Notes: generated by a model not told the origin, from the letters alone. 64,000 nucleotides of DNA from Candidatus Iainarchaeum sp. (GCA_023129115.1 JAGMCR010000011.1:32001-96000), one strand, 5' to 3'; shown: positions 21,246-47,911, counted from the stretch's first letter. Numbers and translations are program-made.

Positions 21246-21249
21246 TACT

Positions 21250-21260
21250 CTTATATACTC
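21250..21260 (+). promoter_or_regulatory. Extended TATA box CTTATATACTC for the pilus ATPase operon
   Basis: Lies in the 35-bp divergent gap and ends 21 nt before ATG 21281. Confidence 0.6.
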
Positions 21261-21280
21261 CCCCCACGTTTTTAAGGAAG

Positions 21281-23587
21281 ATGGCTGAGGAGAAGAGCCC
21301 TTACACTGTTAAGACTGAAGGCACAATCAAGTACCTGATTATTGACTGCCGCGGCTCGACCTACGGCCCAAGCATTGCGGACTACCCCCAGCGCATGTCC
21401 GAAGTAATCGGGTATTTGGGCAAGACAGACGCCGACCGCATCGTCCTCGCCGAAGTATACGAGCGCGTCTACGACGAGGACCAGACGCGCATGCTGAAGC
21501 AGCTCGCCGAGCTCCTGCAGAAGTTCCGCGTCAAGGGGGTGTGGTCCCCGCAGTACCTCGGCGGCGACGCGTGCTCCGCGTTCCTCCCCACGCGCCACGA
21601 CCTCGTCGTAAACATCGCGTCGGACCTCCTCCGCACCGACCCAATCCGCGCGTACATGAAGTGCATCCAGGCAATCCAGCGCGAGAAAGCACAGCTCCCC
21701 CAGCTGCCGCCCGAGCAGAAAGAATGCACGCAGACATTCCTCACCACGCTCGAGTACATCAAGGCAAACTTCGAGGCCACGGACCTAATCCAGCAGCTCA
21801 AGGGCTACGTCCGCAAGCTCAAGAAGCTGCCGCCAGGCCGCGGCTTCTACCACACCGTGTTCGAGGCCCAATTAAAGCCGTCGTTCATCGGCTCCCGGCT
21901 CATGTTCAAGCTCCCCGCGGAAATTGAGCTCCTCGACCAATACGAGGTCAAGGGCACGCGCGTGACAATCTACAAGCACCCCGAAAAAATCGAGTACCTA
22001 TACCACATCAACCCGCCCGAGTACTCCCTCACCCCCGAGCACTACTTCCTCTTGAGCAAGACAAAGGAAATAGTGAGCGAGTACCACCCCGAGGGCCTTG
22101 AGTTCACAGAGCTCGCGACGAGCAAGGACTACTTCATGCGCATCTACGAGACGACCATCGCAGACATCGCGCGGCAAAACGGAATCGAAGTCTCGCATAC
22201 AGACATCCAGCAGCTCGCGCGCATCGTCGCGCGCTACACCATAGGCTTCGGCATGATGGGACTGCTTTTGTCGGACGAGCGGCTCACCGACGTATACATC
22301 GACGCGCCGCTCGGGCAGAAGCCCGTGTACATTGTCCACAGCGACTACGGCCCGTGCCAGACCAACGTGTTCTTCTCGGAAGAAGAGGCCAACTCCGTGG
22401 TCTCGCGCTTCCGCTCCCTGTCGGGCAGGCCGTTCGACGAGGCGCACTCTGTCCTGGACTTCGACCTGCACGAGTACCACACGCGCACGTGCACAATCGG
22501 CCAGCCGCTCTCGCCGGACGGCGTCGCGTTCGCCTTGCGCTTGCACAAGGGAACGCCGTGGACCCTGCCGCAGTTCATCGACGTGAAGATGGTGACGAAC
22601 GAGGTCGCGGGACTGCTGTCATTCCTGATTGACGCGCAGGCGTCCTCGCTCATCGTCGGGAGCAGAGGCTCGGGAAAGACTTCATTATTAATGTCGCTCA
22701 TGCTCGAAATCCTCCCCTCGCTGAGGGTCATAACTATAGAGGACACGCTTGAGCTGCCGGTCGAGTACATGCGCAAGACCGGGTACAACATCTGCCGGCT
22801 CAAGACAAGGAGCGCAATCTCTGTCGGCGCGATTGCGTCCGAGGTGTCGCCCGAGGACGCGCTCCGCACCGCGCTCAGGCTTGGCGACTCTGTACTCATC
22901 ATGGGCGAGGTCCGCTCCAAGGAAGCGCTCGTGCTGTACGAGGCCATGCGCGTCGGCGCAGTGGGCAACGTTGTGATGGGCACAATCCACGCCGAGAACG
23001 CCTACTCTGTGTGGGACCGCGTTGTGAACGACCTCGGCGTGCCGAACACCTCGTTCAAGGCGACGGACATGTGCATTGTCTCCGCGCCAATCAGGTTCAA
23101 GGGAGCGCTGCAGAAGACGCGCCGCCTCGTCGAAATCACCGAGGTCGGCAAGACATGGTACGAGGACCCGGGCCGCGAGGGCGGCTTGATTGACCTGATG
23201 ACGTACGACGCGACGAACGACGTGCAGACCGTGCACAAGGACAACATTTTCGAGAACTCGCAGTTCTTCAAGAAAATCCAGCGGAGGCGCGGCATGGACA
23301 TCGACATGATTTGGGAGGACATCCAGCACCGCGCGTCCTCCAAGCAGTTCCTCGTGGACATGAAAAACGAGTACAAGATTCCCACGCTGCTCGAGGCGAG
23401 GTACACCGTCAGGATGAACGACAAGTACCTCCTGATGCAGGAGCTGTCGCGCCAGGAGCTTGGCAGTGTGGACTACCCCAAGGTGCTCGAGGACTGGAAG
23501 CAGTGGGTCAAGGACGGCTTCGTGAAAGAGCTGGTCTCGAGGAGGGATGCGCTTGCCAAGGTCAAGCCGGCGGCAAAAAAAGAGTGA
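21281..23587 (+). CDS. Type II/IV secretion ATPase (VirB11/FlaI/PilB-like) with long N-terminal domain
   Basis: Walker A GSRGSGKT, Asp box TIEDTLEL, Walker B LIMGEVR, His box GTIHAE. Start MAEEKSP; the ORF-track extension overlaps the sortase gene. Confidence 0.92.
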   Translation: MAEEKSPYTVKTEGTIKYLIIDCRGSTYGPSIADYPQRMSEVIGYLGKTDADRIVLAEVYERVYDEDQTRMLKQLAELLQKFRVKGVWSPQYLGGDACSAFLPTRHDLVVNIASDLLRTDPIRAYMKCIQAIQREKAQLPQLPPEQKECTQTFLTTLEYIKANFEATDLIQQLKGYVRKLKKLPPGRGFYHTVFEAQLKPSFIGSRLMFKLPAEIELLDQYEVKGTRVTIYKHPEKIEYLYHINPPEYSLTPEHYFLLSKTKEIVSEYHPEGLEFTELATSKDYFMRIYETTIADIARQNGIEVSHTDIQQLARIVARYTIGFGMMGLLLSDERLTDVYIDAPLGQKPVYIVHSDYGPCQTNVFFSEEEANSVVSRFRSLSGRPFDEAHSVLDFDLHEYHTRTCTIGQPLSPDGVAFALRLHKGTPWTLPQFIDVKMVTNEVAGLLSFLIDAQASSLIVGSRGSGKTSLLMSLMLEILPSLRVITIEDTLELPVEYMRKTGYNICRLKTRSAISVGAIASEVSPEDALRTALRLGDSVLIMGEVRSKEALVLYEAMRVGAVGNVVMGTIHAENAYSVWDRVVNDLGVPNTSFKATDMCIVSAPIRFKGALQKTRRLVEITEVGKTWYEDPGREGGLIDLMTYDATNDVQTVHKDNIFENSQFFKKIQRRRGMDIDMIWEDIQHRASSKQFLVDMKNEYKIPTLLEARYTVRMNDKYLLMQELSRQELGSVDYPKVLEDWKQWVKDGFVKELVSRRDALAKVKPAAKKE

Positions 23588-23606
23588 CTCCACTCCCAAA
23601 ACGGAC

Positions 23607-25748
23607 GTGGCAGAGCTCCTCTTCGGCGCGGGCAGGAAGAAGCCCAAGAAGAAAAAAGTGGAGAAGCAGCACTGGTACATCGGCTTCTGCAAGAGAGCGG
23701 CCAAGTCCTTCGGCAAGGGCGCGAAGAAGGAATTGACCGAGCAGTACAAGGTCGCGCTCGCCTTCCTCGGGTGGAAGCTGAAGCCCGAAGAAGTCAACGC
23801 CGCGCCGTTGGTGCCGATGTACTACGGCATGGCGCTCGCGTTCGTGTGGGCGCTGCTCAACCTGGTGTTCTCCGGCTTCATCAACGTTGGCCTTAAGCCG
23901 ATTGTTATCCTTGGCACGGAAACAGGCCGCGGCGCAATCGAGGGCGGCTTCCTCCTGATTGGCCACCCGCTTTCGATGGGCATCCCGCTGTTCTGGTACC
24001 TCGCGCCGTTCGCCATCGCGTTCTACGCGATGTACTATATACAGTCCACGCCGATGCGCGAGGCAGAGAAGCTGCGCATCCGCTCGCTCACATTCATCCC
24101 CGAAATCGTGAACTACTTTGTCATGGCGATGAAGGTCACGCCCAACCTCGAGCGCGCGATTGCGTTCGTCGCGGAGCACGGCCAGGGCCGCGTCGCCGAG
24201 GACTTCAAGTCGCTGCAGTACGACATCCACGTCGGCAAGTACCGGACCGTCGAGGAAGCTTTGGACAACCTCGCGTGGAAGTGGGGCGACTACTCCCCGG
24301 AGTTCAAGCACGCACTGATGCTCATCCGCTCCTCAGTAATGGAGGCGGACGAGGGCAAGCGGAACGACCTGCTGGACAAGGCAATCACGGACGTGCTCGA
24401 GGGCATCCAGGAAAAAATGGACTTTTATTCCCGCGCCATGCACCAGCCGAGCATCTACCTCTACTACTTCGGCGTGCTGCTCCCGCTCCTCCTAATCATC
24501 ATCATCCCTGTCGGCGCGATGATGGGCGGCGGCGGCATCGCGTGGCTCGCGGGCGCCATACCCCTCGCAATCATCTACAACGTGATGATTCCGGCCGCGT
24601 CGTTCCTCCTCGCGAAGAGCATTCTCGGGAAGCGGCCGCCGACGCGGGACGTCCCAAAAGTCCCCGTGGGCATGCCCGGCCTCCCCAAGCCGGGGTGGTT
24701 CAGCATCGGCGGGAGCCAGCTGCCCGTGACGTTTGTCGCCGCCGCGATTCTCGTTGGAATTGTCGCTGCGTCGTTCCTCGCGACGCCCATACTCGACCCC
24801 ATGCCGCGCGTGTTCGAGCCAATGTACGACTCGTACTGCCTCATCGGCTCGCCGACCGGCCTGTGCATCCCGTACCTCCAGTACGCCGGCATCCTTTTGG
24901 GCATCGTGGCCGCGTTCGGGTTCCACATGTGGTCGAACCACAAGGACCGCTGGGCCATGCAGCGCGAGATAATCCAGATGGAGAACGGGTTCCAGGAGAC
25001 ATTGTACATACTCGCGTCCCGCCTCGGCGAGGGAAGGCCGATGGAGGACGCGATGAAGCACGCGGCAGAGTTCATCCCCAACTCCCCCGCGACCAAGCGC
25101 ATTTTCCTGCCGACGCTGCACAACATGCGCATGCTCGGCATGACAATCAAGATGGCTTTGTTCGACGAGGCGTACGGCTCCTTGCGGTTCATCCCGAGCG
25201 GGTTCATCAAGGGCACGATGCGCATCGTGGTCGACTCGCTGGGCCTGGGCGTCCAGACCGCGGCCAAGTCACTGATTTCCCTTTCCCTCCAGCTCCGCGC
25301 CATGCAGAAAGTCGAAAAAGCGCTCAAGGCAATGCTTTCGGACATCACGAGCATGATGAGCACGATGAGCATGTTCATCGCCCCGGTCGTGCTTGGAATC
25401 ACCATCGCCTTGCAGCAAATCATCATGGGCGCGATGAAGTCCATGGGCGAGGCGGGCTTAGGGCAGCAAAGCACTGCGAACGTCCCCGGCATGAGCGCGT
25501 TCAAGATGCCCGAGCTGGGGGGCGGCGAGGCGCTCGAGGCCGCCGCGACGCAGGCAGAGCTATTGTTCATAATCAGCTTTTACATGGTCGAGATAGTCGT
25601 AATCCTCATGTACTTTGCCTCGCACGTTAACGAGGGCGACAACGAGCTCGCGTTCAAGATGGCGATTGCGCAGGCGCTGCCGATTGCGATGGCGATTTTC
25701 TTTGGCGTGACGTTCATGGCAATGAAGATGACGGCGATTGGGATCTGA
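23607..25748 (+). CDS. Pilus membrane platform protein (FlaJ/TadC/T2SSF-like, two repeats)
   Basis: Polytopic. Two T2SSF-like halves (AMKVTPNLERAI; LASRLGEGRPMEDA). Follows the ATPase. Start uncertain (GTG 23607 or ATG 23547). Confidence 0.85.
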   Translation: MAELLFGAGRKKPKKKKVEKQHWYIGFCKRAAKSFGKGAKKELTEQYKVALAFLGWKLKPEEVNAAPLVPMYYGMALAFVWALLNLVFSGFINVGLKPIVILGTETGRGAIEGGFLLIGHPLSMGIPLFWYLAPFAIAFYAMYYIQSTPMREAEKLRIRSLTFIPEIVNYFVMAMKVTPNLERAIAFVAEHGQGRVAEDFKSLQYDIHVGKYRTVEEALDNLAWKWGDYSPEFKHALMLIRSSVMEADEGKRNDLLDKAITDVLEGIQEKMDFYSRAMHQPSIYLYYFGVLLPLLLIIIIPVGAMMGGGGIAWLAGAIPLAIIYNVMIPAASFLLAKSILGKRPPTRDVPKVPVGMPGLPKPGWFSIGGSQLPVTFVAAAILVGIVAASFLATPILDPMPRVFEPMYDSYCLIGSPTGLCIPYLQYAGILLGIVAAFGFHMWSNHKDRWAMQREIIQMENGFQETLYILASRLGEGRPMEDAMKHAAEFIPNSPATKRIFLPTLHNMRMLGMTIKMALFDEAYGSLRFIPSGFIKGTMRIVVDSLGLGVQTAAKSLISLSLQLRAMQKVEKALKAMLSDITSMMSTMSMFIAPVVLGITIALQQIIMGAMKSMGEAGLGQQSTANVPGMSAFKMPELGGGEALEAAATQAELLFIISFYMVEIVVILMYFASHVNEGDNELAFKMAIAQALPIAMAIFFGVTFMAMKMTAIGI

Positions 25749-31796: not shown

Positions 31797-34700
31797 ATGG
31801 ATAGGGCGTCCGCTGTGTTCATCGCGTTCCTCCTAATGTTCTCGCTGCTCACGCCATACACTGTGATGGCGCAGGAGAACGGCGGCGAAGAAGTGCCGGT
31901 GGCAGTGGTCATCCCTGCGAACGCGACTGGCTTCTGCCCGATTGGCCAGGCGCTTGAGGTCGTGAGCCTCGACTACCGCCAGGCCACTGCGCTGCAGGGC
32001 ATCGTGACGCAGGACATCGCGACTTCTGCCGAGGAGTACCGCAGGCAGGCCGCGCTCGAAGAGCTCGGCGTGGACACGCGGGGCGACCGCGCGAAGGTCG
32101 CGGACAAGTACAACTTTTATTTCATGGGCCCGGACGGGACCGTGTTTTACTACGAGGTCCTGGACGACTTGATGAAGCCGAACAACGGCTACTTGATTGG
32201 CACCGAGATAACCGGCCGCATCGAGTACGGCGGGCACTTGCGCGAGAACCTGGCGATGTGCGGCAAGACGCCCGCGAATGTAACGACTTCGCCGTGCTCG
32301 GACAACGCGGACATAGTGAAGCGCGAGAGCTATTTCGACAGCGTCAAGGCCGCGGCGTCTTCTCCGGACGCGAAGGCGCAGCTGATTTCGGTGGTCACGA
32401 CCCTCGCGCCGATGGAGGAATTGACTCCGGCGGACGTGCTGAACATTGGGCAGTCGCGCCTGCGGATGACGAGCTTCACCACAACGATGGCGACGAGCGG
32501 CCCGGGCTCCGCCGTATTTGTATTGCCACAAGCCCTCGTGATGTACACTGCGGCGATGAAGAAGCTCGACATGATTGACATCGCGCTTGCCGTGGTCGCG
32601 ATGGGCTCGATTTTCGCGAACCAGGGCCGCATGGCGAAGGACCTGGGCATGGAGGACACTGGCTTCTGGAAAAAAATCAAGGGAATGTTCAAGGCCAACA
32701 ACCCCACGAACGAAATCCTGGACGAGGCGGGCCACCTCCGCTACGCAGAAAACATTGTCGACAATTCAGCCGACTTCACGAGGTACATTGACGAGGCGCA
32801 GGAGCTCATAATTACCGGCAAGGACCCGAAAAAAATATTCCGCGCCACCGAGAACGCCCTGACAGAGGCAAAGAACTACAAGAACTCAATCAAGACCCTG
32901 AGCTCAAGGTACGACGACATGATAAAAAGCCTTGGCAAAAACTCCAAGCTGTCTGATGACGCAATAGGGGCTCTATTCCACAACTCCGACGACATGACGG
33001 CCTTCTTGAAGGCGAACGGCTATACTGATGAAGTAGCCCAAGAAATAATCAGCCTGAGGGTGACTGCGGGCCACATTGACGAGCAGTACGAGGCCGCCGC
33101 CGGCCTCTTTAGGGCGAAGGGAATGCCTTCACCAGAGTACGGCAGTGCCTTGGAGACGCTCCGCTCGATGACTGCGGGCGGAGAGCAGGTGTCTGGGATG
33201 GAGGTCCGTACGCCTTTCATGCTTTTAACCGAGGGCGGGCCCCCCGGAGGAATACCGTATGAAGTAGGCGACGTATTGACAGGCGCCAAGTGGCAGGACT
33301 TCGTAACGCAGCACAACCAATACGTAAAAAACTTCCATCCACATTCAGTGAAAGTGCTCGAGCCGAACACAATCGGCTACCTGGGCACGCACTATAACAG
33401 GCAGTACGGCGGCGCCGAAGCCGCTGACACGCTTGGCTCCCTCATCTTCGGGAGCAGGGGCCTGAAGACGCGCTCGGCCACAAACCCCGCCAAGCAGTTC
33501 GTTGGCGCGTTCAAGGGCGGGGCCAGGGCCGGCGCGGGCAGGGACGCAATCCTTGGCAGTGGCACGCTCGCCAAGGTGTCATCCCTCGCAATGCGCTCGC
33601 TCGGCGCGGGCATTCTGTTGGGACCGGCGACCAAGGCCATGATGATTGCGCGCGGCCTGCACTTCGTCAACGACCTGTTCTTCCGCCAGGGCTTCTTCGA
33701 GCTCACTGGCTCGGGCCTCACGCTCCGCTTCGACAAGGACGAAGTCGGGGGCATCTATTCCGACGAGTCGGTCGTCGTGCTCCTGGCCCAGAACTCGCTC
33801 GTCCGCGGGCTCCTAACGTCCTACATGGGCGGCGAGCTCGGCGCAATCTTCTTCGGCCTGCTCGGCGACGCCAGCGGCACGCTCGAGCCACTAACCAACA
33901 AGGCCAACCTGCTCGGCGACGTCCTCTTGTTCGGCGGCATAATGTACCCGCCAGCCGGCGGAGTCATCGAAGTGGTCGAGGAAAACCCGAGCGGCACCAC
34001 GCACATCGAGCAAAAGGAAAACTATTACATCATGCACATCCGCGAGTGGGACGACCACGTCTTCTCCGCCGTGGAAGACGTGCGCACCATGGAGAAGAGG
34101 AGCGACGAGGGAAGCATCGTCACCGCCATGGGCATGTGGACCCACAAAGTGGACCTCTACGGCCACATGTACTCGCAGGAGGACATGCCGGCAGGCGTCT
34201 TCACCAAGGCAGACCCCTTCATAAGCAAAATCGGCACGTGGGGCGTCTACTCCAACCTGCTGATTTCGTCGTCGGCCTACTACATGTTCTTCTCGCCAGG
34301 CCACATGACTGTCACGGGCAAAGCGTTCTCGATGCTCGGCATGCCCCTCGGCGCGTTCCTCACGGCCAAGGGGAGCATGCTCGCGGGCAGGGAATTCCTC
34401 ACGTCGCAATATACCTCGATGGAAAAGCTCGCCGCGTGCATCGCCCAGGAAGAAAACCGCACCACGCTGGAGGCGTTCAAGGAAGAGGCAATCGAGGCCA
34501 CCATCCCGGTCACGCAGCCGTTGAGGGAGCTAATCAGCGAAAAAATCGAGCCCGAGTACGAGTGCGGCAGGGCGTCGTGCGAGCAGGCGCTGAACGACTG
34601 CCTCAGGAACGAGGGAATGAGCTCCGCGGGAATGGCGGTCACGGGCGCGCTCGGCTACGCCGCTCTCGGCCCGGTCGGCATAGCAGCCGTCACCGTGGTG

Positions 34701-36395
34701 GACGTCGCAATGTCGATTTACAAAATCCAGTTGAGGAAATACTGCCTCGAGACCCTGGCGAGCTGCGACGAGCACACCTTCACCATCGTGGGCGCCGCGC
34801 AGTACAGCGACCCCGCACTGATTGCGGAGCAGCAGCAGAGCGAGCAGCTCAAGGGGCTGCCCGGCCTAGAGGAGCTGCCAATCAATGACTTCCTCGACGC
34901 GACCGGCCTCGGCAATGTCACGAACCCGCTCCAGGAGTTCTCGCAGCAGCAGCTCAACGTGCACACCGAGGGCTACGGCGCGTCTGGCAGGATAGCGTTC
35001 GACGAAGTCTTTTACACCCACCTGCAGGACGTCTCAATCCAGTGGCTCGAGGGCAACCTGCCCGTGAACCTGTGCTCCTTGGACGACAAGGGCGACCCCG
35101 AGGAAGAGAACTGCCTCAAAATCAACGGCGACTCGGTGATGGTGGGCGGCAGGACAATTGTCACGGACGAGCTCGTGCCCTTCAAGTGGATGGACACCGA
35201 GCTGCCGGCGCTGGTCATCCCCAACACCGCAGTGGTGGTCAACATAGCCAATGCCGGCGACTGCACGCTCTTCACGGTCGACAAGACGGGCACGCGCCTC
35301 TTGCTGCACGAGGACGTAATCAGCAAGTTCGAGTCAGAGGGCTTTGACGAGGTCGCGAGGATGCTCGGGACGCTCCGCGTAATCAACACAGACGAGGGCT
35401 CGATTTATCCGAGTGTTGACTACAACGGCGACTTCCGCCTGGAGCACGACCGGCCGGACGGCTCGTTCGGCTACAGCGAGGAGGGCGTCGAAGTCACGGC
35501 GTCCGCGAACGTGCTGTTCAAGAGCGACAGCTTCGGCTTCGAGTCCGCGGTCTTCACCGGCGGCTCCATCATCAAAAAGGGCGACAAAATCTATATTCTT
35601 CCCAAGTTCTTCATGCCCGAAATGAGCGGCAAGCAGTGGCTCCAGTACACGAAGGGCACGCCGTTCCGCAGCGACACGGGCGAGGCCCTCGAGGTGCTGG
35701 ACGCGGTCGGGAATGTAATCGGCCTCGACGCAGCCCTTGCGAGGATTCCGGGCGGCGAGAAGCTCGGCACCATCACGCGGCTCGACGCGTGGAAGGACGT
35801 GAACGGCGACGGCAAGGTCCAGGACGACGAGCAGGCCGGCTGGCGCTTCTACACGGACGAAAAGAACGAGTCCAAGTTCGAGATGTGGTACAACGGCGAG
35901 AAGGAAGTGTACGACGCGGACCAGATTGAGATTGACGAGGAGACTGGCAGCATCCGCGTGTACGAGAAGGACCAGCCGCACGTCGAGGCGAACCTGTTGA
36001 GGGAGCTCGAGACCAAGGTGGACTCGCTGGGTCGCACCTTATTGACAATCCGCGACGGCCAGGGCAACCTCTTGCTGGAGGAGGCGCTCGTCACTTACCT
36101 CAAGGGCACGGGCGGCGCAATCCGCTACGACGCGGACAACAACAACTATATTTTCGTGAACGGCCAGCCCGTTGAATTAAACAACGACTTCAAGCTCAAC
36201 GGCTTCAACCCAATCACGGGCAGGACCGACCCGCCGCTGCTCCAGCCGAGCAGCGCCCGCGCCGCGGTCTCGCCGTACGAGGAAGGCGAAATCGAGCCGC
36301 CGGCAGTGCCGCTGCACGAGGAAGGCATTGGGCTCCTGCTTTACGCCCTCGTGCTCGCCGCGGGGATGTACCTGGTCTACTACCGCAAGACTTAG
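31797..36395 (+). CDS. Large secreted protein, 1532 aa, with several internal hydrophobic helices and a C-terminal sortase-type signal
   Basis: Sec signal peptide (VMA/QE). C-terminus PPAVPLHEEG followed by a TM helix and YYRKT. Confidence 0.85.
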   Translation: MDRASAVFIAFLLMFSLLTPYTVMAQENGGEEVPVAVVIPANATGFCPIGQALEVVSLDYRQATALQGIVTQDIATSAEEYRRQAALEELGVDTRGDRAKVADKYNFYFMGPDGTVFYYEVLDDLMKPNNGYLIGTEITGRIEYGGHLRENLAMCGKTPANVTTSPCSDNADIVKRESYFDSVKAAASSPDAKAQLISVVTTLAPMEELTPADVLNIGQSRLRMTSFTTTMATSGPGSAVFVLPQALVMYTAAMKKLDMIDIALAVVAMGSIFANQGRMAKDLGMEDTGFWKKIKGMFKANNPTNEILDEAGHLRYAENIVDNSADFTRYIDEAQELIITGKDPKKIFRATENALTEAKNYKNSIKTLSSRYDDMIKSLGKNSKLSDDAIGALFHNSDDMTAFLKANGYTDEVAQEIISLRVTAGHIDEQYEAAAGLFRAKGMPSPEYGSALETLRSMTAGGEQVSGMEVRTPFMLLTEGGPPGGIPYEVGDVLTGAKWQDFVTQHNQYVKNFHPHSVKVLEPNTIGYLGTHYNRQYGGAEAADTLGSLIFGSRGLKTRSATNPAKQFVGAFKGGARAGAGRDAILGSGTLAKVSSLAMRSLGAGILLGPATKAMMIARGLHFVNDLFFRQGFFELTGSGLTLRFDKDEVGGIYSDESVVVLLAQNSLVRGLLTSYMGGELGAIFFGLLGDASGTLEPLTNKANLLGDVLLFGGIMYPPAGGVIEVVEENPSGTTHIEQKENYYIMHIREWDDHVFSAVEDVRTMEKRSDEGSIVTAMGMWTHKVDLYGHMYSQEDMPAGVFTKADPFISKIGTWGVYSNLLISSSAYYMFFSPGHMTVTGKAFSMLGMPLGAFLTAKGSMLAGREFLTSQYTSMEKLAACIAQEENRTTLEAFKEEAIEATIPVTQPLRELISEKIEPEYECGRASCEQALNDCLRNEGMSSAGMAVTGALGYAALGPVGIAAVTVVDVAMSIYKIQLRKYCLETLASCDEHTFTIVGAAQYSDPALIAEQQQSEQLKGLPGLEELPINDFLDATGLGNVTNPLQEFSQQQLNVHTEGYGASGRIAFDEVFYTHLQDVSIQWLEGNLPVNLCSLDDKGDPEEENCLKINGDSVMVGGRTIVTDELVPFKWMDTELPALVIPNTAVVVNIANAGDCTLFTVDKTGTRLLLHEDVISKFESEGFDEVARMLGTLRVINTDEGSIYPSVDYNGDFRLEHDRPDGSFGYSEEGVEVTASANVLFKSDSFGFESAVFTGGSIIKKGDKIYILPKFFMPEMSGKQWLQYTKGTPFRSDTGEALEVLDAVGNVIGLDAALARIPGGEKLGTITRLDAWKDVNGDGKVQDDEQAGWRFYTDEKNESKFEMWYNGEKEVYDADQIEIDEETGSIRVYEKDQPHVEANLLRELETKVDSLGRTLLTIRDGQGNLLLEEALVTYLKGTGGAIRYDADNNNYIFVNGQPVELNNDFKLNGFNPITGRTDPPLLQPSSARAAVSPYEEGEIEPPAVPLHEEGIGLLLYALVLAAGMYLVYYRKT

Positions 36396-38690: not shown

Positions 38691-39455
38691 TCACCCGTAC
38701 ATCGGCGTCTTTTCCTCGGCTTCCTTGTACCTGAGCTTGCCGAGCTTGATTTGGCTGAGCATTTTCTTCATCTTGCCCTCGATTTCCTTGGCCTCGGTCA
38801 GGAGGTCAGCGGTCTTTATGTCGTAGCCGAGGAACTTCTCGAGCTTTTCCAATAGCTCTGCCGCTGCGCCGGGGTCGGGGTAGCCGTGCTCCGTCTCTAT
38901 CAATAGGCTCATTGCCGGGAACTTGATGGCGTTGCACTTGGCCATGAGGATGCCGGACACGCCGGTGGTGACGCCCTCGGTGATTACCTTTACCTTCTGC
39001 TTCTCGAGGTCCTTGAGCATTGTGGGCGTGGACGCGATGCCGTAAATCTCGGACTCGACAGGGGGCTCGTTGCTCTTCTGCCGCGACGTCATTCCAGCGA
39101 GCGAAATTATCCTTTTTATCTTGTTGTCCTTGGCCCACTTGATGATTTGGTCCGCGATGTCGTACACTGTGCTGGCCGGCACCACGAATTCCGAGAACAA
39201 TAGCACTGTCTTGTGCTGGTGGTCCACGTAAATCCTGGCTGGGAACAGGGGCTCGCCCTTGTGGATGGACGCCATGGGCGGGAAATGCCTTGACATCAGG
39301 TAGCCCATCTGCTTGGTCTTCTGCCTCTCTGCAAGGTAGCCCACAGCAATCGTGCCAATCAGTCCGATGCCTGGGAACCCCTCCACGAGGGTGTATCCCT
39401 CGACGTTTTCAGGGTTGGTTGTTACTATCTCCACGAGGAGCTCTTTTTCTGCCAT
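38691..39455 (-). CDS. PAC2 family proteasome assembly chaperone
   Basis: VEGFPGIGLIGTIA, YPDPGAA, C-terminal MYG (HbYX). Confidence 0.9.
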   Translation of the reverse strand: MAEKELLVEIVTTNPENVEGYTLVEGFPGIGLIGTIAVGYLAERQKTKQMGYLMSRHFPPMASIHKGEPLFPARIYVDHQHKTVLLFSEFVVPASTVYDIADQIIKWAKDNKIKRIISLAGMTSRQKSNEPPVESEIYGIASTPTMLKDLEKQKVKVITEGVTTGVSGILMAKCNAIKFPAMSLLIETEHGYPDPGAAAELLEKLEKFLGYDIKTADLLTEAKEIEGKMKKMLSQIKLGKLRYKEAEEKTPMYG

Positions 39456-39486: not shown

Positions 39487-39903
39487 CTAGCGGAATGTTT
39501 TCGCGCTCAGGCTGGCGAGCCGCACGTCGATTACAGCGCCAATTTGCTGGGCCTTTAGGAGGTAGTCCTGCCTGTCCTGGGCGCGGAACTGCACGAGGAC
39601 ATTGCTCTCCCCGGCGAGGGCGTGCACCGCTTCCACACCCCCCACCATTTTAAGTAGCTTCGGCGCCGCCTCGGTGGGGTCGCTTGCCTTCCCTACCGCG
39701 AAGCACGCGAACCCTGCGAGGTGTTCGTCCAGGGCAGCGCCGAAGCCAGAAAAAGCCCCACCGCGCTCCAGCCTCTTCAGCCTGGATTGCGCAGTGGAGA
39801 CGGGTATCCCAAGAGCATGAGCAATTTGGGTTATCCGCGGGCTCCAGTAGTCAGGGTTGCGAAGAATCTCGAGCATCCTACGGTCATCCGCGGTTATCTC
39901 CAT
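39487..39903 (-). CDS. Lrp/AsnC family transcriptional regulator
   Basis: DRRMLEIL...ITQIAHALGIPVSTAQSRLKRLE HTH plus a RAM-like C-terminal domain. Confidence 0.8.
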   Translation of the reverse strand: MEITADDRRMLEILRNPDYWSPRITQIAHALGIPVSTAQSRLKRLERGGAFSGFGAALDEHLAGFACFAVGKASDPTEAAPKLLKMVGGVEAVHALAGESNVLVQFRAQDRQDYLLKAQQIGAVIDVRLASLSAKTFR

Positions 39904-40025
39904 AACTCATACGTTAAAACAACTATTATATTTATTATTTACGAATAGTAACTGCAATAAAACAAAATAAGCGTATTTCATACGAAGAATCCAGCCAATG
40001 CGGGGTTTGGGTGTTGGGGGATGTG

Positions 40026-40370
40026 TCAGCTAGTTTTGTAGCCAAACTTTCTGTCGTATTTTTTGTGGCCCATGACGTCGAGGACAATTCCAATTAGTTC
40101 GACTTGGTCCCCTACGATGGTGTAGAGCATTCGCCAGTAGTTGTCGAGGTCTAGTTTCCAGAGGTTGTTTATCCCGTATTTTTTGATGTATTCTTTTGGC
40201 CAGAGGTTCCCCGGGATTTTTTTGCCTGCCGTGACTTTGGTGGCGACTTTTGCGATTCCCTTGTCCACTATTTTGAGTAGGTAGGTGGCTTCGCCGTTTC
40301 CTTTTTCTGCTCGTTGTTGTAGTCTCACGAATTCTTCATTGAATTCTGGGCTGAGTTTCACGGAGTACAT
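40026..40370 (-). CDS. RelE-like toxin
   Basis: INNLWKLDLDNYWRMLYTI...HKKYDRKFGY; coupled by TAATG to the upstream gene; low GC. Confidence 0.65.
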   Translation of the reverse strand: MYSVKLSPEFNEEFVRLQQRAEKGNGEATYLLKIVDKGIAKVATKVTAGKKIPGNLWPKEYIKKYGINNLWKLDLDNYWRMLYTIVGDQVELIGIVLDVMGHKKYDRKFGYKTS

Positions 40371-40648
40371 TAGCGCACCCGCACACTTTCTTTGAGTAGT
40401 TTTTTGAGTTTGGGGTTGTCGGCGAAGACCCACACGATTTTTCCGTCTTTGTCGACCAAAATTTTTCCGGAGCTCTCGAGGTAGTCGAGGACCAGGTTGA
40501 GTGTCCGCCCCATTACTTGCCTTGGGAGGTGTCTCCCCAACTGCGTCCTGGATCGGTACTCCCCGGCTTTTTTTATGGCGTCTTCTATCATGAGCACGGT
40601 GTCAAGCCGCGGGTAATGTACTTGGGTTTGCATTGTTTTTGTGACCAC
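40370..40648 (-). CDS. Small winged-helix protein, putative antitoxin
   Basis: YPRLDTVLMIE...TLNLVLDYLESSGKI; upstream of and coupled to the toxin. Confidence 0.6.
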   Translation of the reverse strand: MVTKTMQTQVHYPRLDTVLMIEDAIKKAGEYRSRTQLGRHLPRQVMGRTLNLVLDYLESSGKILVDKDGKIVWVFADNPKLKKLLKESVRVR

Positions 40649-41837: not shown

Positions 41838-42574
41838 GCGAAAAACGGCCTCTTCAGCTTTATGAACGCGAGTATCGCCAGGTCAATCGTTGGGAACGCG
41901 AGCACCGGTATCCAGAACGCGTCGCTGGGCGTGAGGCTAACGCTCATGAACGCCGAGCCAACGATTACGTACGCCTGGAACAGCGCCGGCAGGATGGCGG
42001 ACACTGCTATAAAGACGAGCGAGTACACCGCAAGCTTTCCAGAGTACTCGCGGAGCGCGGCCTTCTGCATCGCGGCGATTTCCTCGCTGAGCTTCTTCAG
42101 CGCTGATGCGCCGCCGCGCTTCGAGTAAATGCTGTTCAACTGCATCACTGCCTTCTGGAGCTGGCCCGAGTCCACCCTCGCCACCATGGAGTTAAGCGCC
42201 TGCGGCACGGCCGCGCCGAACTCCACTTCCTTAAGTGCTATCCCCACGTGCCTCGCGAGCCCGGAGCCCTCGCAGCTCTGCTGCAGGGCCTCTTCGAACG
42301 GCAGGCCCACTGCAATCAGCGTCGCCATGGAGCGGAGCGCGAGCGGCAGCTCGGCCTCGACCCTGCCGGCCAGCGACTTTTTCCTGTACCACGGGACCTT
42401 GTACACGGCGGCGAAGGAGAGCCCTGCAGCCACTGGCGCGGCCATGGGCCAGAACGCGACTGCCGCCACGAACGCCGCTGCCCCCGCCATCACGCAGTAC
42501 TTAAGCCACTCTTCTTTCGTGTTCCGCATCTCTGCCAGTTGCAGGTCGCGCTCAAGCCCCGTGAACAGCTTCAT
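41834..42574 (-). CDS. TadB/TadC-like (T2SSF) membrane protein
   Basis: VEAELPLALRSMATLIAVGLPFEEAL...EVEFGAAVPQAL. Confidence 0.85.
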   Translation of the reverse strand: MKLFTGLERDLQLAEMRNTKEEWLKYCVMAGAAAFVAAVAFWPMAAPVAAGLSFAAVYKVPWYRKKSLAGRVEAELPLALRSMATLIAVGLPFEEALQQSCEGSGLARHVGIALKEVEFGAAVPQALNSMVARVDSGQLQKAVMQLNSIYSKRGGASALKKLSEEIAAMQKAALREYSGKLAVYSLVFIAVSAILPALFQAYVIVGSAFMSVSLTPSDAFWIPVLAFPTIDLAILAFIKLKRPFFA

Positions 42575-44216
42575 TCACTTCCTCCACCGCTTCTGCAAAG
42601 TCTGTTGGCGAGTTCGCGAGCATGCCCTCGCGCCTCTGCCACTCCTGCCCGAGCCCGCTGGCGTCCAGCGAGAACGCCTTCATGATTTTTTCTGACACTC
42701 CGCCACTCCCAACCTTTACAAGCGCGTCTTTCGCCGCGTCGTAGTCGAACAGCTTGTGCGGACGGGCTTGCCCGTTGTGGTGCACCTCGCTTATCTCCAT
42801 CACCCTCCGCAGCTCCCGCGTCTCTTTTTTCTCTGGGTCGTACTTGTCCCACCTCTTCTGCACCACCAGCAGGTCAATCGTCGGCAGGTCGTGGTCGCTT
42901 ATGCCCAAGGCCTTGAGCCGGTTGATTGCTTCCCTGCCGCTCAGGGCGTGGAACGTCGCGACGCTTCCCTTGCCCTGGCCCGCGAGCATGGTGTTCATCA
43001 ATGCCTTGGCCTCTTCCCCAGTGCGCACTTCGCCGACGATTATCCTGTCCGGCCGCATCCGCAGCGTGTCGCTCACGAGGTCGCCCATCCCAATCCCCAA
43101 TTCCTCGTTGACGGTGAGCCGCACGCTGTGCTCGTGGGGAATGCTTATTTCGGGCGTCTCCTCCACGATAATCACCCGCTCGCCCAGGGGGATGAACGCG
43201 CTCAGGCAGTTCAGCGTCGTGGTCTTCCCGGACCCGGTCGACCCGGCAACAAGAATGTTCAGGTCGCACTGCATGGCCATCCACAGGAACGACATTGCCT
43301 CTGCGGTTATCGTCCTGTTGTCAATCAAGTGCCTCGGGCTCAATGGCTTCTCAGTAAATTTCCTTATTGTCAGGCACGGCTGCTTCGTCACCGGCGGAAT
43401 CGCGGCGTGCAGCCTCGACCCGTTGGGCAGGCACGCGTTTATCCTCGGCTTCTGCAGGGTAATCCTCCTCCCCAGTGAGCGCGCGATTCTGTTTATCACG
43501 CCCACGATTTTCTTTTCGTCGAGGAACATCACGTCGGCCTCGAGCCAGCCCACGCCCCGCCTGTACACGCGTATCGGCTCGCCCACGCCGTTGACCGTAA
43601 TCTCTTCCAGCGACTCGTCCGCCAGCATGGGCTCGAGCACAGAGAACCCGTGGACCTCGTAGTGGATGAGCCGCAGCAATTCTTCGCGCTGCGAGTCCTC
43701 AAGCACCAGCCCTTTTCCCTCGCAGTACTCCTCGAACACTTCCTCGACGTCTGCCTCGCCTTCCTTGGCGAGCTCGCGGAATGCCTTGACCACTGCCTCG
43801 ATGGCCCTGGCCTCCTGGCAGCCAGGCGAATAAATCCCTGCCTCGTAGTTGCCGCCTGCTTTTTCCCAGCCGAGTATGCGCCGCGTTTCCTCGACTTCTT
43901 CTTCGCTGGCCTCGAGCCGGAGCCCCTTCACGCAGACCTTTATGCACTTCGGGTCCCCGCCGCACAAGTCGCACTTCCTGGCGTAGCCGTCCACGTAAAT
44001 CGCGTTGTACGGGCACGACAGCGCGCACAGCCCGCACCCGTCGCACTTCTCCGGGTCGACAGCCCACACCCCGGTCGCCACTTCGTAAAACGCCCCCTTC
44101 GGGCAGGCCTTGACGCACTCTGGCTCAAGGCAGTGCCTGCACTCGAAGTTTGCCTTGTGCGGGCACGCCTCGACGCACGCGTTGCAGTGGCTACACTCAT
44201 CTATAACTAACCTCAT
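42552..44216 (-). CDS. TadA/CpaF-type secretion ATPase fused to an N-terminal four-cluster [4Fe-4S] ferredoxin
   Basis: Four Cys4 motifs in the first ~95 aa, continuous with GSTGSGKTT, VEETPEI, LRMRPDRIIVGEVR and ATFHA. Confidence 0.88.
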   Translation of the reverse strand: MRLVIDECSHCNACVEACPHKANFECRHCLEPECVKACPKGAFYEVATGVWAVDPEKCDGCGLCALSCPYNAIYVDGYARKCDLCGGDPKCIKVCVKGLRLEASEEEVEETRRILGWEKAGGNYEAGIYSPGCQEARAIEAVVKAFRELAKEGEADVEEVFEEYCEGKGLVLEDSQREELLRLIHYEVHGFSVLEPMLADESLEEITVNGVGEPIRVYRRGVGWLEADVMFLDEKKIVGVINRIARSLGRRITLQKPRINACLPNGSRLHAAIPPVTKQPCLTIRKFTEKPLSPRHLIDNRTITAEAMSFLWMAMQCDLNILVAGSTGSGKTTTLNCLSAFIPLGERVIIVEETPEISIPHEHSVRLTVNEELGIGMGDLVSDTLRMRPDRIIVGEVRTGEEAKALMNTMLAGQGKGSVATFHALSGREAINRLKALGISDHDLPTIDLLVVQKRWDKYDPEKKETRELRRVMEISEVHHNGQARPHKLFDYDAAKDALVKVGSGGVSEKIMKAFSLDASGLGQEWQRREGMLANSPTDFAEAVEEVNEAVHGA

Positions 44217-44286
44217 TCTCCCATCTCCCCATAGCATCATTCTTAAGGCGAAAGTCATATATATAACTTACATATACAAAACATAT

Positions 44287-44604
44287 ATGGCTTCAAGGGC
44301 TGTCCTCGTGAATTTTCCTGAAAAAGTCTTGTCCGGGCTTGACTCTCTTGTCGAGGAAGGGGTTTTCGACAACCGGAGCGAGGCGATTAGGGAGGCCACG
44401 AGAAAAATAATCATGGAATACCGTGGCATTGCCGGCCCGGCGGAAAAGCCTTCTGTCGAGCTAGTGCGGGAAGTCAGGGCCAAGATGTGGCGCGATGCCT
44501 TGAGGCAGGCAAAGGGCGACGAGCAGAAGGCAATGGATTTAATCGCAAGAAAGGCAAAGAAGGCCGCGGACAAGTTTTGGCCTAATATTCGCCGGGCTCG
44601 ATGA
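44287..44604 (+). CDS. CopG/RHH antitoxin-like protein
   Basis: VLVNFPEKVLSGLDSLVEEGVFDNRSEAIREATR. Confidence 0.8.
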   Translation: MASRAVLVNFPEKVLSGLDSLVEEGVFDNRSEAIREATRKIIMEYRGIAGPAEKPSVELVREVRAKMWRDALRQAKGDEQKAMDLIARKAKKAADKFWPNIRRAR

Positions 44605-45007
44605 CTGCCACACCGATTAGGTCGCCGACTTCCTTGTGTATTTTTTCTCCGCTGACGAAGAAGCCCACGCTGCTTTTTTTGGCGAGCAGGAAATGCGCCG
44701 CGTCATTGACACCGATTCTTTCCCCGATTTCGCCAGCTATTTTTCTGTTCAACTCAACTGCTTTCTTCAAGATGGCACCGGTTGTTTCAATGCGCTCGAC
44801 CAGAAGGCCCGTGTCCGCAATGAATGATTTCATGAGCGGAACCAGGTATGGGTAAACATTTTCCATTTCCTGGATGACTAAGTCTGATAGCAACACAGTG
44901 TCGCCGTTGCCCACCGCTTTTTCGAACATCCTTTCAGCGAAGTAGGTCGGCATTCCCTCTTCCTTGAATAAGCTAATCCATACATTGGTGTCTAGGTAAA
45001 GCCTCAT
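44582..45007 (-). CDS. PIN-domain (VapC-like) ribonuclease, convergent with the RHH gene
   Basis: LYLDTNVW, IQEME, NDAAHFLLA, FVSGE. Confidence 0.85.
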   Translation of the reverse strand: MRLYLDTNVWISLFKEEGMPTYFAERMFEKAVGNGDTVLLSDLVIQEMENVYPYLVPLMKSFIADTGLLVERIETTGAILKKAVELNRKIAGEIGERIGVNDAAHFLLAKKSSVGFFVSGEKIHKEVGDLIGVAVIEPGEY

Positions 45008-45028
45008 TCTTCCTCTCCCCTCTCGCTT

Positions 45029-45340
45029 TCATGGCGTTATTTCAATTGACTTCCCCTTGATTTTCAGCGTCACTTTTTCTCCCTGCTTCAGCCCGAGTGC
45101 CTGTTCCATCACTTTGGGTATCCGCACTATTAGGTTGCTCTTTATCCGCCCGAGCTTTGCGTGGAACTTCTGGTGCTTTAGCTTGTTGGCTACGAGTATC
45201 CTTTCCGCCTGCAGTGGATCCAGATACTCCTCGCCGCAATTATCGCACTTCCAGCCATCAAGGACGTATCTTTTGAACTTTAGCTTTGTCGGCTTCGCGA
45301 CTTTCCCACAGAGGCATCCAAGCCCTTCCTTCTTTTTCAT
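45029..45340 (-). CDS. Zinc-ribbon (YgiT/MqsA-like) plus AbrB-like antitoxin
   Basis: CLCG...WKCDNCGEEYL, then SNLIVRIPK..EQALGLKQGEKV. Confidence 0.75.
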   Translation of the reverse strand: MKKKEGLGCLCGKVAKPTKLKFKRYVLDGWKCDNCGEEYLDPLQAERILVANKLKHQKFHAKLGRIKSNLIVRIPKVMEQALGLKQGEKVTLKIKGKSIEITP

Positions 45341-45648
45341 TTAAACTTCCCCGCGTGTATTATCAGCCAGGCTTCTTTTTTCAGGAAACTGTTGTAGCAC
45401 CTCGCCACCACAATTTTTATCGTCTTGTTCCCTTTCTTCACGCACTTTTCCAGCACGTTTTTCTTTCTCTTGCTCCTTGCGCAGTCATACCCTTCTTCCA
45501 GCACCTCAATCGCGTCGTGCACGGTGAAGTGCAGTCGGTCCAGCTCGCGTGCGGCTGCCCGGGTTGGGACAACACGCAGCCCCCTCCACTTGGGGGCAAC
45601 AACCTCTAACATATGTTCTTGACATATGTTATTAATATATGTTTCCAT
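45337..45648 (-). CDS. Putative RelE/BrnT-fold toxin (DUF4258-like)
   Basis: Basic ~90-100 aa ORF coupled by ATGA to the zinc-ribbon antitoxin; ends WLIIHAGK; start uncertain. Confidence 0.55.
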   Translation of the reverse strand: METYINNICQEHMLEVVAPKWRGLRVVPTRAAARELDRLHFTVHDAIEVLEEGYDCARSKRKKNVLEKCVKKGNKTIKIVVARCYNSFLKKEAWLIIHAGKFK

Positions 45649-45698
45649 AACTCTCTCCCCAGACAGTTATTCTCGCTTGAGCTATTTATTCCTTGCAG

Positions 45699-46013
45699 TC
45701 ACGCGCGGATTTTGGCCTTCTGCTTTGCATGCTCTTCCAGAAATTCCATGTCCACCGCTGTCGCAAGCTCGTCCAGCTTGACCGCGATGGCAGATTCCTT
45801 GTTGAACTGGTACATCTGCGCCCTTCCCTCTGTCCTGGTCTTTTTGGCGATTCCGCCCTCGACTAATTCGGGCATGACCCTCTGCAGCGTGCGGAAGCTC
45901 ACGCCCGTGGCTCCGCCAATGTCCTTTAGAGAGTAGTCCCATTCCGAGTGGACCCTAAGAAAATCCAGCACCTTTGGGATTGGCCTGTCACCGAACACGT
46001 GCACTAACCCCAT
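45699..46013 (-). CDS. Winged HTH regulator
   Basis: YSLKDIGGATGVSFRTLQRVMPELVEGG...RAQMYQFN. Confidence 0.75.
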   Translation of the reverse strand: MGLVHVFGDRPIPKVLDFLRVHSEWDYSLKDIGGATGVSFRTLQRVMPELVEGGIAKKTRTEGRAQMYQFNKESAIAVKLDELATAVDMEFLEEHAKQKAKIRA

Positions 46014-46378: not shown

Positions 46379-46687
46379 TCACTCTAGTTTTACTTTCATT
46401 CCCAACTTGTATTTGGCAGCGCCAGCCCTCATCTCCACAACGTACTTGGCCGGCTTCTTCGGGACAATGTTCAGGCGCCACGGCTTCACGTTCTTGACGA
46501 CGTCAACAACCCGCCTCTCGCTGTCCAAGAAAACCAGGTCAATCGGGAACCGCATGAACAGCGTGTGTATCGCCGCCATCCACCGTGACTCCACTGCAAG
46601 AACGAGCGCCATTGGCCTCCCTAGCTTTTTCCGGAACATCAGCCCCATGAACTTCTGCCAGGGCGTGGTTGCCCACTCTACTTTCAT
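46379..46687 (-). CDS. DUF192 (UPF0127) protein
   Basis: KFMGLMFR, IHTLFMRFPIDLVFLD, AKYVVEM. Confidence 0.88.
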   Translation of the reverse strand: MKVEWATTPWQKFMGLMFRKKLGRPMALVLAVESRWMAAIHTLFMRFPIDLVFLDSERRVVDVVKNVKPWRLNIVPKKPAKYVVEMRAGAAKYKLGMKVKLE

Positions 46688-46739
46688 GATACTCGCTTCA
46701 AGGAAAACTTCCCCCTCCAGAAGGTTAGGGGTTGAGTTC

Positions 46740-47911
46740 CCCCCTTTCTTCCTCGGCAACCTTTAGCCGAAGAGCGTTTAAATACTTTTCACTTAACGTG
46801 AAATCATGCAAAGGGCAATCACTACGTTTTGTGAGTATGATGCTGACCTAATTAAAACAATGGAATTGTTCAACAAGGCCTGCCAAGAAGTAATCAACGT
46901 TGGCTGGGAGATAAAGGAATACAACAAAATGGAACTCCATAAGCTCACTTATCGTGCTATTCGCAGGGATTTTCCTTTGCTCCAGAGCAGCTTGGTTGAG
47001 GCTGCGAGGGATGTTGCTTCTGACATGCTTAAAAAAACCAAGTTCGCCAAGAAAGCATCTGCGCGGCAGCGTTAGGCTCAACCTGCGGACGTTCAAACCC
47101 TTCCTCAAAAGCAGCTATGTTTCTGTAAGCACTGTTTCCGGAAGGAAGAAAATTCCCATTAAAATTCCTAATTATTTTAATAAATACAAAAAGTGGCAGA
47201 TCAAAGCAGCTACTCTCAAGTACAAAAATGGGGGTCTATCCTTTGTGTTGATTGCCGAGAAAGAAGCTTCAGAGCCTAAAAAGCCTGAAACCGTGATGGG
47301 GGTTGACCTCGGCGTGAACAACATCGCGGTATGCTCGAATAACACGTTTTTCAATTCCAAGCACCTAAAAAAGGTCAAGGGAAGATACCAATATCTACGC
47401 AGAACGCTTCAGTCCATTGGCACTCGCTCCGCGAAGAGAAAGCTCAAGAAGTTGAGTGGGCGAGAAAGACGGTTCGTGACTGACTTGAACCACTGTATCA
47501 GCAAAGAATTGGTTTCCCTGCCTTTTGATTGCATTGCCTTCGAAAAACTCTGCATCAAGAAAAAGAAGGGCAATGGGAAGCGTTTCAACAAAAAACTTGG
47601 TGGATGGAGCTACGCACAACTCCAAGCATTCACTAGCTACAAAGCAGAAGAACTCGGCAAAACCATTGTTTTCGTGAATCCCAGACACACAAGTCAAGCA
47701 TGTTCTGTTTGTGGCCATAGGCACAAGTCCAACAGAAACGGCGCTGTCTTCCGCTGCAAGTCCTGCAGCTTCGAGCTACACAGTGACTTAAACGCTTCCC
47801 GAAACATCGCCAGCCTCGGCAAGTCCGAGGTTGGTAGGCTGCCCAGTCAACCAGCCAAACGTAACCTCGCAAGAGAGTTACAAGCCCCTATTCCATTAGG
47901 GTGCAGTTGAC
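46740..47911 (+). mobile_element. IS200/IS605-family (IS1341-type, tnpB-only) element; left end approximate
   Basis: Low GC. Left hairpin TCGGC-N8-GCCGA; right end CAAGCCCCTATTCCATTAGGGTGCAGTTGAC; no tnpA in the window. Confidence 0.75.
46806..47910 (+). pseudogene. tnpB: TnpB RNA-guided nuclease split by one +1 frameshift near 47031-47075
   Basis: N-terminal ORF 46806-47075 plus a second frame carrying GVDLG, AFEKL, CSVC/CKSC and SDLNASRNIA. An A7 run lies at 47031-47037. Confidence 0.85.

Follow-up and report, generated by a model that had tools for sequence, protein, structure and literature searches.

Among described systems, those closest to the gene reported here are the archaeal secretion ATPases AfGspE2 (2oap) and FlaI/ArlI (4ihq, 4ii7), bacterial TadA/CpaF (8rkd, 9e24) with TadB and TadC, and archaeal type IV filament (T4F) system 1 (Epd-like). 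The gene lies on a 64,000-nucleotide stretch of DNA from Candidatus Iainarchaeum sp. (GCA_023129115.1 JAGMCR010000011.1:32001-96000; below, the window, with positions counted from its first letter) and encodes a polyferredoxin-type iron-sulfur (Fe-S) module fused to an archaeal T4F (secretion) ATPase. AfGspE2 and FlaI are the best matches of this protein in both sequence and structure and share all four ATPase motifs with it, but their first ~50 residues are replaced here by a polyferredoxin with 16 cysteines. The fused ATPase also scores below the NCBIfam cut-off for FlaI (189 versus 550 bits), and the locus has no archaellum genes. Bacterial TadA/CpaF belongs to the same superfamily, and its two downstream platform genes are alike, but it forms a separate clade, the match to TIGR03819 is below cut-off (187 versus 373 bits), and no Flp, Rcp or TadZ genes are found here. 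The initial annotation had called the motor a TadA/CpaF ATPase; the superfamily assignment stands, whereas sequence, structure and tree place the protein closer to AfGspE2/FlaI. With T4F system 1 the locus shares two platform genes, a criterion taken from PMC13705601, but the fused ATPase did not group with the Methanobacteriaceae clade-1 ATPases in a quick tree.

The N-terminal module resembles the four-cluster electron-transfer subunits (9mqx_E, 6x6u_B, 8c0z, HycB 7qv7, PsrB/NrfC 2vpw, DmsB, FdnH) in cysteine spacing and fold. Unlike them, it is fused to a motor and has no gene for a catalytic or membrane redox partner beside it; all of its NCBIfam matches are far below cut-off, and the locus has no oxidoreductase that is conserved from phylum to phylum. 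Metal-binding accessory domains on ATPases are likewise known in RLI/ABCE1 and, as a zinc motif, in EpsE/PilB. However, RLI/ABCE1, which the source genome also encodes, is an ABC ATPase and not a T4F motor, and EpsE has its four-cysteine zinc site inside the C-terminal domain (PMC5061722). In Sulfolobus, the Fe-S-annotated protein AapX (arCOG07320) is required for the Aap type IV pili, which are abolished by its deletion (PMC11178785, PMC13705601); unlike the module it is encoded by a separate gene. AapX offers a precedent for a tie between an Fe-S protein and an archaeal pilus. A 2026 census reports AapX and variable N-terminal extensions of the ATPases (PMC13705601); no Fe-S-fused ATPase was found in its available text, and its readable supplements gave no matches to Fer4, ferredoxin, 4Fe-4S or DUF192. 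Automatic annotations of homologues already list both domains. Since no description was found in the literature searched (subscription journals and bioRxiv supplements lay outside the search), the fusion is apparently undescribed so far, as the initial annotation had supposed.

The fusion is real and conserved

One uninterrupted frame with four cysteine motifs and a complete secretion ATPase, followed by two TadB/C genes, had been reported, and all of these elements were found (Table 1). The frame is free of stops. An in-frame ATG upstream, at 44258, would add 14 residues; homologues begin at the ATG at 44216, which has GGGAG just 5' of it. The cysteines fall into groups A (C8, C11, C14, C18), B (C26, C29, C34, C38), C (C58, C61, C64, C68) and D (C82, C85, C91, C95). 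Fer4 models of Pfam cover residues 25-99, and T2SSE matches with 125.6 bits, above its cut-off of 24.9. The Asp box is at residue 352, Walker B lies within RMRPDRIIVGE from residue 386, and the His box is at residue 421; by strict patterns the Asp box is present in 244/270 and the His box in 232/270 relatives (Walker A and B, Table 1).

Among the best 120 homologues listed, 114 have a Cys-rich N-terminus, five are ATPase-only and one is a tandem paralogue; their source names are Micrarchaeota, Diapherotrites/Iainarchaeota or 'archaeon'. Of the 31 genomes in the window's phylum, 29 have an orthologue: it shows four ligand sets in 19, three in five and two in two, is split in one and is domain-less in two, so that 26/31 carry the domain fused; the two genomes without an orthologue are 61-62% complete. 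Another sample from the study behind this genome yielded a contig (X3, 43542-43979) that bridges the junction at 43900-43930 with a single difference, while a run covering the whole stretch may be the window's own source and is not independent read support. Because homologues, same-phylum genomes and the second-sample contig share the junction, a lost stop or a misassembly is ruled out, and the fusion is not unique to one assembly. The runs containing the source sequence, all from one study, are labelled cold seep metagenome; no RNA datasets are among those listed. The source genome (1.25 Mb, 88.6% complete) encodes six secretion ATPases, and the Fe-S domain is found on this one only.

Predicted structure of the module and the motor

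The AlphaFold2 model of the protein, built on a 98-row alignment, has a mean predicted local distance difference test score (pLDDT) of 93.3 and a predicted template-modelling score (pTM) of 0.81; a single-sequence fold of residues 1-190 was poor (pLDDT 48) and was not used. Residues 1-105 of the model match 9mqx_E with Z 13.4 and a root-mean-square deviation (rmsd) of 2.3, followed by 6x6u_B (Z 11.8) and HycB (7qv7_G, Z 11.5). For the four-cluster subunits of tungsten aldehyde oxidoreductases together with HycB the range is Z 10.7-13.4 and rmsd 1.9-2.4, and for the four-cluster electron-transfer subunits overall Z 9.5-13.4 and rmsd 1.9-2.8 over 102-105 residues. The DmsB/CooF/HycB-type cysteine spacing noted in the initial annotation is thus borne out by sequence and by fold.

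The remainder of the protein (residues 121-554) matches residues 53-502 of FlaI/AfGspE2 with Z ~35. Because the match begins only at their residue 53, aligned with residue 121 here, the module appears to take the place of the extreme N-terminus of the FlaI/GspE2 type. FlaI N-termini form crown tips that are proposed to lock into FlaJ (PMC4307647), and the module would be expected at this crown-tip position. The linker between A4 and B1 measures seven residues in the window's protein and 7-15 in 145 fused relatives, versus a mode of 29-31 in 114 free-standing relatives and ~30 in the four-cluster electron-transfer subunits. The nearest free-standing relatives are proteins of 125-170 residues with an A-to-B linker of ~30. 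With its shorter linker, the module is thus a trimmed form of such proteins.

Cluster-wise loss of the cysteine ligands

Nine cysteines (C18, C34, C38, C58, C61, C64, C68, C82 and C91) are invariant in the 98 aligned sequences, and at least 15 of the 16 ligand columns are kept in 145 of 200 Cys-rich N-termini. The rest mostly show losses by set. Five fragments without an N-terminus were excluded from the loss counts. A1-3 and D4 are jointly lost in 29 sequences from at least two separate Iainarchaeota clades, B1-3 and C4 in five genomes of one family, and both sets in L215. Five Micrarchaeota, two of them irregular, have lost the C group, and four sequences have lost B and C together. No sequence has lost A4+D1-3, the set beside the linker helix, as a whole; the exceptions within it are one genome with D2 replaced by Gly and two with irregular D spacing. 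Single cysteine losses outside any set were seen in P0052, P0084, P0085 and P0106.

In NarH/DmsB-type proteins ligation is cross-wise, A1-3 with D4 and B1-3 with C4, and the joint losses follow exactly these two sets. Cysteines therefore seem to disappear in whole-cluster sets, a pattern that genuine [4Fe-4S] clusters would produce and that points to [4Fe-4S] occupancy. Separate zinc fingers or disulfides are unlikely because they would not predict that distant sets are lost together; chance Cys richness or a zinc finger is disfavoured by the fold as well.

Distribution and history of the fusion

In the phylum to which a Micrarchaeota record belongs, an orthologue was found in 178/401 genomes (E ≤ 1e-125, three candidates scored per genome), and the domain is present in 20 of the 150 matches listed. 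The phylum to which an Iainarchaeota record belongs has an orthologue in 170/201 genomes, and 47 of the 150 matches listed start within the domain. No orthologue was found at E ≤ 1e-122 in a sample of 251 genomes from the phylum to which a Pacearchaeota record belongs (five candidates scored each).

The orthologues form one clade against eight paralogues (support 100). In a quick tree, the subfamily is separate from bacterial CpaF (clades supported 100 and 99) and from Methanobacteriaceae ATPases (99); another paralogue of the source genome, on contig C6, groups with the Methanobacteriaceae clade-1 ATPases with a modest support of 85. By these sequence comparisons, the ATPase belongs to a distinct subfamily of three DPANN phyla and not to bacterial TadA/CpaF. 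Within the clade, domain-bearing and domain-less orthologues interleave, with 21 changes on a tree of 151 rows, a count that gives no direction by itself. A single ancestral fusion followed by repeated loss would be the simpler reading because one junction and one spacing are found everywhere. The Fe-S domain is thus dispensable, most Micrarchaeota orthologues being without it; many domain-less orthologues start at or near MLGW.

Loss is not the only departure from the fused state. In G028, the domain is kept as a separate 125-residue gene with all ligands intact, ATGA-coupled, its stop overlapping the ATPase start; the same split arrangement occurs in two further contig pairs. The split-off protein retains the linker helix and ends just past LGW.

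Other unusual ATPases were met along the way: P0119 is a 970-residue protein with two tandem T2SSE domains, the source genome also encodes an 1101-residue secretion ATPase (C3:102640-105945), and at L267 (C12:121161-123756 of the same genome) two adjacent MinD/Mrp-like P-loop ATPases carry inserted ferredoxin motifs.

The module and anaerobic-type gene content

The source genome encodes a short PorA, a NiFe-hydrogenase-type match and an IscU-type scaffold, and no SufBD, superoxide dismutase (SOD) or superoxide reductase (SOR) was found in it at 88.6% completeness; from its gene content it looks anaerobic. We compared 40 fused with 40 unfused genomes in an author-chosen panel of incomplete metagenome-assembled genomes. 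POR_N was found in 40/40 fused versus 29/40 unfused genomes, SOD in 13/40 versus 27/40, and the SufB+SufD pair in 4/40 (all three-cluster forms) versus 21/40. SUF is a marker of oxygen-stress tolerance. There was no clear contrast for SOR (17/40 versus 9/40) or NiFe hydrogenase (26/40 versus 21/40), and NifU_N was near universal (76/80). Five Fe-S assembly systems are discussed in PMC13066941.

In tree-paired contrasts on the ATPase tree, the SUF pair gave 14.4 same versus 0.3 opposite of 22 pairs (p ~1e-4), and every draw on 15 bootstrap trees gave p < 0.05. SOD gave 10.8 versus 0.7 and lack of short PorA 11.3 versus 0, while hydrogenase gave nothing. Within the window's phylum, just two genomes have the SUF pair, and they are also the sole domain-less ones; eight others have a single SufB-like match. 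Pooled and uncorrected for kinship, the SUF pair is present in 0/55 four-cluster versus 37/95 domain-less genomes. Retention of the module chiefly in genomes that look strictly anaerobic, with loss elsewhere, suggests that filament assembly may be switched by the redox or oxygen state of the cell.

Among Iainarchaeota with the three-cluster form, one clade has sufB ~2.2 kb from the Fe-S ATPase gene in 5/5 genomes checked (G595:C14, G550:C5, G617:C5, G597:C82, G478:C8; for example L218), an arrangement that is probably one event.

Platform genes and the surrounding locus

Table 1. Coordinates of the fused gene, its parts and its neighbours in the window
Feature	Position	Strand	Basis or remark
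Fused gene: polyferredoxin-type domain + archaeal type IV filament (secretion) ATPase, 554 aa (P0001)	42552..44216	-	Translation, Pfam, AlphaFold2
Fe-S module, aa 1-103, 16 Cys in groups A-D	43908..44216	-	Pfam, alignment, structure comparison
Linker helix (aa 105-115) and LGW motif (aa 115-117)	43866..43904	-	AlphaFold2 model, orthologue starts
N-terminal helical ATPase subdomain, aa 121-190	43647..43856	-	Structural match to FlaI/AfGspE2
T2SSE ATPase core, aa 192-471	42804..43643	-	Pfam
Walker A, aa 325-333	43218..43244	-	Motif; kept in 254/270 family members (strict pattern)
Walker B, aa 391-396	43029..43046	-	Motif; 245/270 by strict pattern
TadB-like platform protein, 246 aa	41834..42574	-	T2SSF match; overlaps ATPase stop
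TadC-like platform protein, 285 aa	40980..41837	-	T2SSF match; ATGA-coupled
DUF192 (COG1430) gene	46379..46759	-	Pfam; displaced here by inserted small toxin-antitoxin-like genes
PAC2 proteasome-assembly-chaperone gene, downstream	38691..39455	-	Pfam; 25/29 loci of the window's phylum

The ATPase and TadB-like genes overlap by 23 nt, and the TadB-like and TadC-like genes by 4 nt (ATGA). A platform (T2SSF/TadC) gene adjoins the ATPase in 147 of 155 short Micrarchaeota/Iainarchaeota loci; the window has two. The three phyla share the core locus DUF192-ATPase-TadB-TadC-PAC2 whether the Fe-S domain is present or absent, the PAC2 neighbourhood being probably synteny only. DUF192 is near the ATPase in 22/29 loci of the window's phylum and in 77/155 short loci, directly upstream of it in most relatives. 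As the most constant upstream neighbour across the three phyla in both domain states, it is a candidate T4F accessory protein; no mention of it was found in two census papers as searched in their available parts (PMC13705601, PMC4858521). A flavin-reductase-like neighbour, considered as a redox partner and set aside, occurs in 21/29 loci of the window's phylum and was unseen among neighbours in the shorter Micrarchaeota/Iainarchaeota loci.

There is no pilin gene in the core locus. In the source genome, eight matches to the class III signal-peptide pattern were found, seven of them plausible pilin-like open reading frames (ORFs), and many relatives have, just upstream, a second ATPase/platform set accompanied by genes for adhesins and pilin-like proteins.

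Small genes of ribbon-helix-helix-like/PIN, MazE-type and helix-turn-helix kinds flank the ATPase-TadB-TadC block at 44268-46013 and 39487-40648 and separate it from DUF192 and PAC2, which adjoin it in most relatives. Elsewhere in the window, an IS605 OrfB/TnpB (Cas12f-like) gene lies in a low-GC stretch at 46954-47910 (+), and a 1532-residue protein without a Pfam match is encoded at 31797-36395 (+) and adjoins the locus in 11/29 loci of the phylum. A second, divergent secretion ATPase of 820 residues (weak T2SSE) is found within 21125-25748 (+), and the 733-residue gene after it clusters with platform proteins.

A candidate sensor on a filament motor

We propose, with a probability of about one half, that the Fe-S module is an accessory sensor, either of redox state or O2 or of Fe-S status, and that it gates the motor. 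The gene would then encode the motor of a T4F machine made of the ATPase and two half-size platform proteins, and each subunit of the presumed ATPase hexamer would carry a trimmed four-[4Fe-4S] module, derived from a small CooF/AorA/DmsB-type subunit, in place of the FlaI/GspE2 N-terminal 'crown tip'. The count of up to 24 clusters per hexamer given in the initial annotation is likewise an inference. The module would lie outside the power stroke. Its outer clusters might come to redox equilibrium with the pool of ferredoxin, or signal damage by O2 or the state of Fe-S supply; the linker-proximal cluster could pass this state to the N-terminal domain and so tune ATPase activity or platform engagement; filaments for adhesion or host contact may thus be built when the cell is reduced and anoxic. 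We favour a sensor because the module is dispensable, costly and retained even as a separate subunit, because the linker cluster is essentially always kept while outer ones are shed, and because the genomes are anaerobic and ferredoxin-based.

Several points weigh against this proposal. The core locus lacks a pilin and the motor is one of six paralogues, so that pilus assembly is assumed. The association with anaerobe-type genomes runs in one direction and weakened when it was replicated: in a new panel, where the unfused state was read from match start and ORF length, the SUF pair was found in 0/6 four-cluster versus 14/53 unfused genomes (Fisher p 0.32), in 7/17 three-cluster genomes and in 0/2 other fused Micrarchaeota forms. 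A stricter starred-branch test has only three pairs, with which significance is unreachable; SOD is present in 10/18 fused Micrarchaeota; and the traits, six in all, were picked after the fusion pattern had been seen, on non-random panels. The putative gating by redox state or O2 put forward in the initial annotation gains indirect support from cluster-wise ligand loss and the genome association. More tentative, at somewhat less than even odds, is the stronger version in which the built-in [4Fe-4S] clusters gate the filament motor directly: outer clusters would read the ferredoxin pool or O2, the linker-proximal cluster would switch hexamer-platform engagement, and DPANN symbionts would extend host-attachment pili only when anoxic and reduced.

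A structural or mechanical domain explains most of the same facts, although we regard it as rather unlikely. Here, the clusters would merely hold a spacer, lever or docking fold on the hexamer, without sensing, and the domain would be lost wherever its cost in O2 or iron exceeds the benefit; a domain that is simply O2-labile and dropped when costly would produce the anaerobe association just as well. The Fe-S domain of RLI/ABCE1, with two clusters, has a mechanical role. Besides the ligands, the module's surface has few conserved residues and its net charge ranges from -8 to +10 (mean +1), unlike a fixed redox-partner interface. Subsystem-specific N-terminal extensions are common in archaeal T4F ATPases and are proposed to be interaction surfaces (PMC13705601), and the zinc of EpsE, a precedent for a structural metal site, promotes activity and is considered an improbable Hsp33-type switch (PMC5061722). 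However, for a genome of 0.5-1.5 Mb a domain with four clusters is a heavy cost, lineages that gave up one or two clusters still have the same core cluster and did not turn to a cluster-free fold, and fission left all ligands in the free 125-residue protein.

We consider it improbable that the module is a wire for electrons, with cytoplasmic ferredoxin at one end and the membrane, the filament or a host cell at the other, although its fold is that of electron-transfer subunits and most Cys-rich sequences keep nearly all ligand columns. The clusters of such proteins form a chain, ordered as in NarH/FdnH. Loss of an interior cluster with the distal one kept, as seen for B1-3+C4 in six sequences (the five genomes of one family and L215), would break this chain, and in other lineages both end clusters are lost too. 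Across the 29 and 155 loci of the three phyla, no redox gene is conserved beside the ATPase; no separate ferredoxin gene stands beside domain-less orthologues, the sole Fer4-motif ORF outside ATPases in the 155 short loci being the split form. No link to NiFe hydrogenase was seen, and none of the 10055 ORFs of the source genome has two or more CxxCH motifs, hence no multiheme ORFs. The link between a pilus and electron transfer suggested in the initial annotation is accordingly disfavoured.

Less probable still is a near-neutral ancestral fusion, in which a ferredoxin with its own soluble carrier role rides on the ATPase gene and is shed lineage by lineage. Some 20 inferred losses from an otherwise intact locus and the natural split form would agree with it. 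On the other side, the domain is retained across three phyla at ~40% identity, AlphaFold2 packs it at a defined position, no free copy is left near domain-less orthologues, and in the split form the linker helix and LGW belong to the small protein, whose gene remains coupled in translation to that of the ATPase. Finally, that ATPase-TadB-TadC builds no pilus but powers a related machine for export or host contact, in which the module would serve for example cargo maturation or gating, is very improbable: the pilin-free core locus with DUF192 and PAC2 as neighbours and the separation of the subfamily from Methanobacteriaceae (Epd-type) ATPases would fit, but scattered pilins are the rule in DPANN (PMC13705601), and pilin-like genes are found both in the source genome and upstream of the second ATPase/platform sets of relatives.

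New here are the distinct DPANN ATPase subfamily, the set-wise cysteine loss, the dispensability of the domain together with a coupled split form, and the SUF contrast. If direct gating is true, this would be the first intrinsically redox-switched secretion ATPase found in the literature searched, and it would offer a mechanism for AapX. The proposed sensor bears on the role of AapX and on how archaeal pili are switched on and off, or retracted without PilT. With clusters built into the motor, a single purified protein is enough to test how redox state and filament assembly are linked, and four-, three- and two-cluster, split and domain-less orthologues provide a natural control series. The module is also a candidate handle on the timing of host attachment by DPANN archaea.

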